A stretch of 12,644 nucleotides of DNA from a virus. Lineage: Duplodnaviria; Heunggongvirae; Uroviricota; Caudoviricetes. The notes under the pieces are model-generated. The model worked only from the letters and a program-made list of their open reading frames with translations, made no database searches and was not told the origin of the DNA. Shown piece after piece: positions 5,469 to 7,156 of this stretch. Where the stretch lies: the IMG/VR virus record IMGVR_UViG_2695420565_000020. The stretch is one strand, 5' to 3'. Position 1 is the stretch's first letter, and each line of letters begins with the position of its first letter. The translations under genes and the position numbers were made by a program.

Positions 5469-6091
5469 GGCACGGGCTGCTGGCGCTGATTTGCTGGCTG
5501 TGTTGTGTTGTTGCCCATAGCGAAATGCTGAATGTCGAACAATCCGGGCTGTTTCGCGCCTGGTTTGTACGCATTGCACAAGAACAGCTCCGCCAGGGGC
5601 CAAGTCCACGCTGGTATCAGCAGGATTGTGCGGGCCTGGTGCGATTTGCGGCGAACGAGACGCTGAAAGTTCACGATAGTAAATGGCTAAAAAGTAACGG
5701 TTTCTCTAGCCAGTATTTGCCGCCAGAGATGACGCTAACACCTGGACAGCGTCAACTGGCGCAAAACTGGAATCAGGGGAACGGGAAAACCGGCCCCTAC
5801 GTGACCGCGATTAATTTGATTCAGTACAACAGCCAGTTTATTGGCCAGGACATAAACCAGGCGCTGCCTGGCGATATGATTTTTTTCGATCAGGGCGATG
5901 CCCAGCACTTAATGGTCTGGATGGGGCGTTACGTCATCTACCACACCGGAAGCGCCACGAAAACTGACAACGGAATGCGCGCAGTCAGTCTGCAACAACT
6001 TATGACATGGAAGTTGTATATTAAAAATTTCATTAATTATCAATATGTTAATGTGCGCCGGTCATTATTAATCAAAATAAAACCATTATGA
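5465..6091 (+). CDS. yfaT: YfaT-like protein (208 aa), recalled as DUF1175 family, predicted secreted; 3' end lies in prophage attL
   Basis: ATG at 5465 overlaps the yfaA stop (ATGA at 5465-5468); N-terminus [19 protein letters not shown] looks like a signal peptide. The ORF-track start at 5438 is GTG. The last ~25 codons run through AT-rich phage-like sequence and the stop (6089-6091) overlaps the int stop. Confidence 0.75.
5995..6085. other. attL region (core plus P-prime arm with arm-type Int-binding repeats)
   Basis: The AT-rich segment 6001-6085 ends at the int stop; ggtcattattaatcaaaataaaa (6060-6082) resembles lambda P-prime arm sites (ggtcactatcagtcaaaataaaa) and ttatcaat (6047-6054) is shared. 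Exact core coordinates cannot be fixed without the empty-site or attR sequence. Confidence 0.5.
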
Positions 6092-7156
6092 TATTTCAAT
6101 TTTGTCCCACTCCCGCCCGCGACTGTCCCTGTAACGCGCCGCCATTGAATCTGATTTATGCCCGAGAAGACGTTGAGCAAACTTATCGCCAATCTGATTC
6201 CGGTATAGCCTCGCCGACAGGCTGCGCAGTTCATGGAATGTTGGCGGGTCTCCATCAAATGAGAGTCCAGATGCATTTCTCGCCTTTGTAAAATACTTAG
6301 ATACTGTTTTCGGGGAAAGCGGTTCGTGATGCGTTGATGCAATTATTGTTTCACTGCCGCTGGCCTCCCTGCATTTCTGTAGTGTATCAGCCAATGAGAT
6401 ATTGAGCGCGTCAATCGTTAGCGTCAGCGGAATGGCGAGCTTAGCCCCTGTTTTACCCTGCTCAATGTGAAGATGGTTGTCGTTTATGTCTGACCATTTC
6501 ATTCTGCATAAATCGCCTACTCTCTGCCCTGTAACGACAGCCAAATCCATTGCCAGCCTCAGCCAGATTGGGAGCGGTTCGGCTGCATGGTAAATCGCGA
6601 CATATTCATTAGCTGTCAGTCTTGAACGCCTTACTTCTGATTTTGCTGTGCGGGTTGCTGTTACCGGATTCGTAGCCACATGCCCCTCGGCTATTGCCTC
6701 ACGAAAAACGTCAACAAGGGTTGACCTGATTAATTTTGCGGAAGCCGCTTTACCTTCTGCTACGTAGGTGTTTAGCATTGCTGCCACCTCTTTCGTTGAT
6801 ATGTCAGCGAGCGGTTTGTCCGGCAATTTTCTTCGGATTGCCCTGATTTTGCTGGCGTAGTCGAGTAGAGTTTTCGGCCTGATACCCCTCTCGCTGAGGA
6901 TTGTTTCATATCGGTCAAGCCACGCATGAAGAGTGATTGCGTCAGCGCCTTTAATTCTGTCTATCAGTGACTCACGCCTGTTCCCGGATAGCAACTCAAT
7001 ATTGGCCTGTATTGCTTCAGTGATTGCTATCCTCCTGTCTCGGCCTAATCCGAACTCTTTACCCGTCCTTGGGTCCCTGTAGCAGTAATATCCATTGTTT
7101 CTTATATAAAGGTTAGGGGGTAAATCCCGGCGCTCATGACTTCGCCTTCTTCCCAT
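6086..7156 (-). CDS. int: Tyrosine site-specific integrase, lambda Int family (356 aa)
   Basis: N-terminus [55 protein letters not shown] matches lambda Int; catalytic motifs present ([27 protein letters not shown], Tyr in ARYRD). Central region diverges from lambda Int by recall. Confidence 0.95.

Follow-up and report, generated by a model that had tools for sequence, protein, structure and literature searches.

The 12,644-nucleotide (nt) stretch of DNA analyzed here (called the window below; IMG/VR record IMGVR_UViG_2695420565_000020) covers the left (attL) end of a lambdoid prophage that sits in the Escherichia coli gene yfaT, and it carries an integrase gene, int, whose product matches phage λ Int at its N-terminus and departs from it thereafter. 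An earlier note on this DNA had read the departure as a changed core recognition that agrees with integration at yfaT. The question that the locus raises is what places the prophage there, the integrase or the DNA on which it acts. We find that the window Int is an ordinary, already known HK022-type integrase and not a new divergent one, and we consider it quite probable that the yfaT location comes from differing attachment site DNA; no Int residue specific to yfaT was found.

The integrase gene and its relationship to phage λ

The genes concerned are the following.

6086..7156, minus strand: int, encoding a 356-amino-acid lambda-family heterobivalent tyrosine integrase of the HK022 subtype, WP_000533670.1 (open reading frame [ORF], Pfam and alignments)
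6992..7156, minus strand: int codons 1–55, arm-type DNA-binding domain, identical in amino acid sequence to λ and HK022 Int
7134..7352, minus strand: xis, encoding a 72-amino-acid excisionase and overlapping the int start (PF07825, E = 3.6e-41)

In phages λ and HK022 the N-terminal domain of Int binds arm-type repeats, and the half-sites, inverted on either side of a 7-bp overlap, are held by the core-binding and catalytic domains; integration host factor (IHF) bends the arms, Y342 cleaves at the overlap edges, Xis directs excision, and strand exchange requires the same overlap in attP and attB. The window Int is recognizably of this heterobivalent type. It has an arm domain (PF09003, the λ Int arm-DNA-binding domain, at residues 1–68, E = 7.3e-29), a SAM-like core-binding domain (PF02899 and PF22022, residues 81–170) and a phage integrase catalytic domain (PF00589, residues 179–346, E = 4e-41) with the R-K-H-R-H-Y set R212, K235, H308, R311, H333 and Y342, and these are accompanied by an adjacent xis that overlaps the int start and by an att site with a 7-bp overlap, inverted half-sites and arms. 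Its alignment with the solved λ Int structures 5J0N and 1Z1G covers the full length (E ~1e-180).

The earlier note had described about 55 N-terminal residues that match λ Int, many substitutions from residue 56 onward and catalytic residues that are kept, and its description is accurate: residues 1–55 are identical, 86 of the 301 positions after residue 55 differ (71% identity there, 75.8% overall), all six catalytic residues are in place, and the two peptide strings that it quoted, one from the window and one given for λ, match the real sequences exactly. In the DNA, xis and the first ~35–50 int codons are 97–100% identical to λ, near-identity ends at ~7052–7001, and identity is ~60–65% from there on; this is a sharp mosaic joint in int relative to λ.

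An HK022-type integrase that is also found at torS–torT

A translated search of deposited phage genomes gave a 100% match to the Int of four Stx1a-converting phages (LC744181-4), followed by HK022, mEp235 and mEp506 at 98%, Gally at 97.5%, and two further Stx1a phages and H19J at 95–96%; λ, 434, HK97 and others reach only 76%. Residues 1–355 are identical to those of the LC744181-4 Int, an identity that is observed directly. Compared with HK022 Int, 348 of the 356 residues are identical, the differences being seven substitutions in residues 1–355 (A137, G234, K261, G267, T275, E278 and D303 in the window protein) and the C-terminus, S* versus DK*. All seven of these residues are present in the Int of Gally, a phage whose HK022 attP core is intact, and six of them are the λ residue. 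At positions 99, 282, 283, 287, 319 and 329 the window Int has the HK022 residues, including D99, P282, K283, K287 and R319; in the 1995 work of Dorgai, Yagil and Weisberg, the changes N99D, S282P, G283K, R287K and E319R reportedly switch λ Int to HK022 specificity. Given these HK022 residues and the 98% identity, the λ-like N-terminus with a divergent remainder is therefore the classical λ/HK022 mosaic itself and no mere analogue of it. Thus the modular pattern that had been proposed is real, and core specificity is changed relative to λ, but the protein is HK022-type Int itself and does not represent a parallel case.

The target of this integrase type is well established. HK022 integrates in the torS–torT intergenic region, its attB (PMC6814406), Gally sits at torS–torT and is spontaneously induced (PMC9928086), and O26:H11 Stx1a phages integrate between torS and torT (PMC10042803). 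For LC744181 the torS–torT location is also seen in sequence, with an attR that reads ATCCTTT-AGGTGAA-AAAGGTT and torS DNA beyond its attL, and a torS junction is present in 192–194 of 5426 complete E. coli genomes.

One might suppose that the substitutions after residue 55 are a newly diverged core specificity that explains integration at yfaT, given that the core-binding and catalytic domains are 74–75% identical to those of λ, that all five reported specificity positions are changed, and that the phage sits in yfaT and not in λ attB. The substitutions, however, are those of HK022 Int, whose target is torS–torT, residues 1–355 are identical in torS–torT Stx1a phages, and the seven non-HK022 residues are shared with Gally; we regard this explanation as very improbable. 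The agreement that the earlier note saw between the divergence and the yfaT site does not hold up, since the same residues occur in the HK022, Stx1a and Gally integrases at torS–torT, and the divergence from λ therefore does not account for yfaT. An integrase that has a known different target and is identical over residues 1–355, here that of the Stx1a phages, is what the earlier note had said would refute its proposal. Comparison of the yfaT copies with the Stx1a, Gally and HK022 Int proteins found no yfaT-specific residue in 1–355, and the window allele, unchanged or with a single change, stands beside every yfaT attL sampled as well as in the torS-located Stx1a phages.

Attachment sites in yfaT

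The attL site of the window is made up as follows.

5996..6016, plus strand: attL core, aligned with the λ and HK022 cores; B half-site CAACTTA at 5996–6002, overlap TGACATG at 6003–6009, C′ half-site GAAGTTG at 6010–6016
6017..6093, plus strand: P′ arm of attL, overlapping the int stop codon (comparison with relatives)
6038–6050: H′ site, by sequence match to the IHF consensus
6059–6068: arm-type site P′1, CGGTCATTAT, a lambda-like repeat
6069–6078: arm-type site P′2, TAATCAAAAT, a lambda-like repeat
6079–6089: arm-type site P′3, AAAACCATTAT, a lambda-like repeat

The λ-like arm-type repeats that had been reported in attL are thus P′1–P′3, between the core and the int stop codon. P′2 and P′3 (6069–6089) carry one substitution each, at a position where λ, HK022, Gally, Stx1a and the O157:H7 fossil described below all have G (P′2) or T (P′3). 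The P′ arm (…CCTTCTGACATGGAAGTTGTATATT…) is 73–80% identical to those of HK022, Gally, Stx1a and the fossil and 68% identical to that of λ. The P arm lies outside the window and was read from the attR of strain O111 11128; in this attR and in the intact fossil attP it aligns with the λ and HK022 P arms.

The attR of O111:H- 11128 is CTCCTTC-TGACATG-GAAGGAC, and together with the attL of the window it predicts the attP core CTCCTTC-TGACATG-GAAGTTG. The rebuilt attB, CAACTTA-TGACATG-GAAGGAC (…CAACTTATGACATGGAAGGACACC…), lies within yfaT. When the left flank in the window is joined to the right flank in O111, an intact yfaT frame results that is 100% identical in unoccupied genomes, and so the integration at yfaT that had been claimed is borne out. 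The yfaT site is unoccupied in 5199 of the 5426 complete genomes, and 177 have the attL junction. These att sequences and the precise junctions between phage and host DNA are read directly from the genomes.

The window junction is not at the HK022 attB (torS–torT, overlap AGGTGAA) but in yfaT, with overlap TGACATG. The HK022 attP core is ATCCTTT-AGGTGAA-TAAGTTG and its attB is GCACTTA-AGGTGAA-AAAGGTT, with an overlap wholly unlike that of the window, but all eight half-sites, four of the yfaT system and four of HK022, fit NN[A/C]CTTN when read toward the overlap, with CCTT at C and B′ and ACTT at C′ and B in both systems alike. Published work on HK022 Int states that its 7-bp overlap may be any sequence so long as attP and attB carry the same one, and that of each B half-site only 5 bp are needed (PMC7736782). 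With HK022's half-site pattern kept and the overlap flexible, the simplest explanation is that the yfaT location would be encoded by the attP core DNA.

In the mechanism that we favor, Int is a complete lambda-family integrase of the HK022 subtype, with HK022-type core-binding and catalytic domains, and xis and the arm-binding DNA are held in common with λ. The attP core would set the yfaT location through an overlap that matches a yfaT sequence, and HK022-type protein recognition would be retained at half-sites that keep NN[A/C]CTTN.

A fossil attP in O157:H7 and the mosaic int module

In an O157:H7 genome (locus L035, NZ_CP038414.1, ~2563300-2564410), nleA and a decayed int enclose an intact attP whose core is exactly the one predicted and whose P arm is near-identical, and this fossil independently confirms the predicted attP core. 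The same nleA-attP-int arrangement occurs in four metagenome contigs (L019, L022, L025 and L029), and L025 agrees with the reconstructed yfaT-type P arm at all aligned positions. The int of the fossil has become a pseudogene, with its first ~28 codons gone and with internal stops. Its prophage also carries nleH1-2 and nleF, and the attP is unrecombined and embedded in another prophage.

Comparison with this fossil and with the torS-type phages divides the int module of the window into two segments.

6135..7400, minus strand: xis and int codons 1–340, a block with a single mismatch (at 7181) to the torS–torT phage Stx1a_NIID112183
6086..6134, minus strand: the last 16 int codons and stop, with synonymous divergence from the torS-type phages; nearest to the O157:H7 fossil int

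Both boundaries of the first block are sharp, the upstream one at ~7400-7419. Over a 900-bp int body identity is 100% to Stx1a_NIID112183, whereas HK022 and Gally reach 97%, the O157 fossil 86% and λ 70%. In the final 62 bp of int the fossil comes first, at 95%, ahead of HK022, Gally and Stx1a at 89–92%; this 3′-end affinity is a matter of 3 mismatches versus 5–7 in 62 bp. The joints are seen directly in the alignments, and int looks like a mosaic of a torS-clade xis-int body and the att end of a separate yfaT-type lineage. In the mechanism outlined above, the module is composite, torS-type in its xis-int body and fossil-like in its last ~16 codons, core and P arm.

The window Int ends ...EIS* where torS-type Int ends ...EIDK*, and this C-terminal residue is the only protein difference that follows the yfaT location in all copies examined. 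The C-terminal tail of λ Int regulates catalysis in trans, and it could be argued on these two grounds that the changed C-terminus retunes the integrase for the yfaT sites. The change coincides with the recombination joint, however, and the simpler view is that it is a passenger; the family already varies in its final one or two residues (K in λ, DK in HK022, G in the fossil), which are not known to contact DNA bases. We give the idea hardly any credence.

Did the present integrase carry out the integration?

An alternative of more substance is that an older fossil-like Int integrated once, that its xis-int body was later overwritten by a torS-type phage, and that the present Int has little or no activity at the yfaT sites, the prophage having spread only vertically and by homologous recombination. 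The int body is 97–100% identical to torS-type alleles and 86% to the fossil while the last 62 bp of int are nearest the fossil, the shared block is sharply bounded, and torS and yfaT prophages occur together in strain TW08637, all of which would fit this history, as would the high identity among the copies, the PE164/E105 lineage, the P′2 and P′3 substitutions, the many remnants and the want of an intact attP in free phages and viral contigs, which are taken up below. Against it, the half-sites follow the pattern seen in HK022, whose Int can work with any overlap and with reduced B sites; the 3′-end argument consists of the few mismatches given above, and A283 and R287 of the fossil Int, which a decayed pseudogene encodes, may mean nothing. 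We think such a history unlikely, though it deserves real attention.

The att DNA explanation, with an active HK022-type Int, is the one we prefer, and a number of points weigh against it. That the window Int recognizes the yfaT half-sites, and that it catalyzes or ever catalyzed recombination there, we infer from sequence comparison. The five specificity positions are those that the 1995 work reportedly identified, and the literature consulted confirms "five key residues" between λ and HK022 specificity and names N99D only. Similarly, which half-site bases HK022 Int tells apart is reportedly set out in the work of Nagaraja and Weisberg from 1990 and of Dorgai, Yagil and Weisberg from 1995. 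The fossil Int, which is the sole other Int linked to a yfaT-type core, departs from the window Int at two of these positions, with A283 for K283 and R287 for K287. The P′2 and P′3 substitutions could weaken arm binding by Int.

The history of the occupied genomes bears on the same issue. All ~168 copies are at least 99% identical, and a single ancestral integration is therefore possible; the 177 occupied genomes may all stem from it. Independent integrations were considered as evidence that Int works at yfaT and were rejected, because the backbones are shared or the prophage was imported with its flank. O111, O103 and CAU16175 share the window backbone, with 2–5 single-nucleotide polymorphisms (SNPs) in 5.8 kb. 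PE164/E105 (L036 and L037, a pig/fish lineage), the one divergent backbone that the comparison covered, have 89 SNPs, a 1.5%-diverged ubiG-gyrA-yfaA backbone, but the last 218–258 bp of yfaT beside their attL are of the window haplotype (window 5744–6002), and TB06052 (L040), whose backbone is the nearest among unoccupied ones, differs from it at four sites. Since the window haplotype flanks their attL, this lineage therefore gained the prophage by homologous recombination together with the flank, which is no separate integration. From this gain and the possibility of a single integration it follows that the present int body need not be the one that catalyzed integration.

The genomes with torS prophages add a further caution. 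TW08637 (NZ_CP074721.1; L042 at 1.7366 Mb and L041 at 3.0179 Mb) has two prophages with HK022-type int-xis, in yfaT and at torS–torT, with differing att cores. Its torS copy is allele WP_000533665, which differs from the yfaT copy by 15 residues and the C-terminus. Both this copy and Stx1a_EH2115 have the P′ arm of Stx1a_NIID112183 with another int body (the EH2115 int is 96% identical). Because the same P′ arm goes with other int bodies in these two, the identical int at torS–torT may be a gene conversion from a resident yfaT prophage, and the presence of an identical Int at torS–torT, taken as proof that one enzyme serves both sites, is weakened by EH2115 and the TW08637 torS copy.

An excised attP with the window-type P′ arm, which would read CTCCTTCTGACATGGAAGTTGTATATT and is distinguishable from the O157 fossil, which reads GAAGTTGTTCGTTC, was found in none of the phage, viral-contig and metagenome collections, and this weighs against current activity. 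Among deposited phages there is no free phage with an intact yfaT-type attP, the best being Gally at 80% and HK022 at 78%. The attP core has no exact match in IMG/VR, where 8 matches are every one an attL junction, and a metagenome scan for it gave 16 matches, 12 of them chance 19-mers and 4 the O157-type fossil, with no excised phage.

Finally, many yfaT prophages are remnants, which speaks against current activity. The copy in O111:H- 11128 (L004, 20337-34560) is ~14 kb long and keeps int, xis, late-regulation and lysis genes, nleG and nleA. In PE164/E105 (L036 and L037, 7385-7777) 126 bp of xis remain, fused with part of a methyltransferase gene. The copy in O26 RM10386 spans ~50 kb, but its gpJ is interrupted by IS66 and its large terminase gene contains an internal stop.

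The host locus and neighboring genes

The remaining genes of the window were identified from the ORF list, Pfam and the annotation of matching genomes, except where noted.

135-905, minus strand: ubiG
1004-3631, plus strand: gyrA
3732-5468, plus strand: yfaA
5438-6091, plus strand: yfaT′ hybrid ORF, DUF1175 (PF06672; compared with the rebuilt intact YfaT)
beyond xis in the window: λ-like early-left genes, including exo, bet and gam (Pfam and annotation of matching genomes)

Insertion splits yfaT at the att core, and its final 24 host codons are swapped for 25 phage codons that run through the P′ arm. The hybrid ORF shares 6 bp with the int stop codon, and RefSeq calls it a full DUF1175 protein. 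The gene is on record as phage-disrupted (PMC3603311) and is among the candidates proposed for regulated gene integrity (PMC7192596). The GyrA of the window is wild-type in its quinolone-resistance-determining region, with S83 and D87.

Novelty and implications

In the searchable literature we found no explicit description of a yfaT att class (TGACATG) with an HK022-type Int; yfaT is absent from the TIGER supplements, and a whole-word literature search for yfaT gave mostly unrelated papers. The only mildly new element is this third att class in the λ/HK022 module family, without a site-specific change in Int. For annotation, the gene is a routine HK022-type integrase that is already in RefSeq across hundreds of genomes. 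Because Int is near-identical or identical at two loci and the difference lies in the 21 bp of the attP core, the integration site is not predictable from the integrase sequence alone in the λ/HK022 family.

It is conceivable, although we would put it at somewhat under an even chance, that the locus represents natural retargeting by attP DNA alone, one HK022-type Int and Xis serving both torS–torT (AGGTGAA) and yfaT (TGACATG). If so, then in enterohemorrhagic E. coli (EHEC) with both a Stx1a phage and an NleA effector phage, the Int and Xis of either could excise the other prophage, and the differing overlaps would stop the two from recombining together. An Int active on both att classes would let the Stx1a phage and the NleA prophage of O26, O103 and O111 EHEC affect each other's induction and excision, and it would be a natural counterpart to the engineered overlap reprogramming of HK022 Int for genome editing (PMC7736782). 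Overall, this is an ordinary member of a known family with a modestly interesting att variant.

Comparison with known systems

HK022 is alike in the Int residues at 99, 282, 283, 287 and 319, in domain order, in Xis (one amino acid difference) and in attP layout, which is P arm, 21-bp core, and P′ arm with H′ and P′1–3. Its C′ half-site is almost equal (CAACTT), and the CCTT/ACTT half-site pattern is kept. It differs in overlap (AGGTGAA rather than TGACATG), in the outer bases of the C, B and B′ half-sites, in target (torS–torT rather than yfaT), in its arms, to which the window P′ arm is 80% and the P arm 66% identical, and in an Int that ends DK* where the window Int ends S*.

Stx1a_NIID112183 and the three other phages of LC744181-LC744184 are closer still, with an int-xis block that is DNA-identical bar one mismatch in 1.2 kb, and Gally (strain LF82) shares with the window Int each of the seven residues by which the latter departs from HK022 Int. 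Unlike the window, the Stx1a phages and Gally have the HK022 att core, the torS–torT location, and other P′ arms and last ~16 int codons.

The attP core of the O157:H7 fossil is identical to that predicted for the window, its P arm is near-identical to that of the O111 11128 attR, nleA lies beside the P arm as it does in the O26 and O111 yfaT prophages, and its int 3′ end is 95% identical, but over the int body identity falls to 86% in DNA and 83% in protein, and over the P′ arm to 73%, and its Int departs from the window Int at residues 283 and 287.

λ Int (5J0N, 1Z1G, 1P7D, 1AE9 and 1KJK) is identical at residues 1–55 and in the catalytic hexad; λ Xis (two amino acid differences) and the λ arm-type sites are nearly equal to those of the window, and the C′ half-site is common to both. 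The two integrases are set apart by the 86 substitutions past residue 55, which include the five positions reported to switch λ Int to HK022 core specificity, and the att core, overlap and target of λ are all different.

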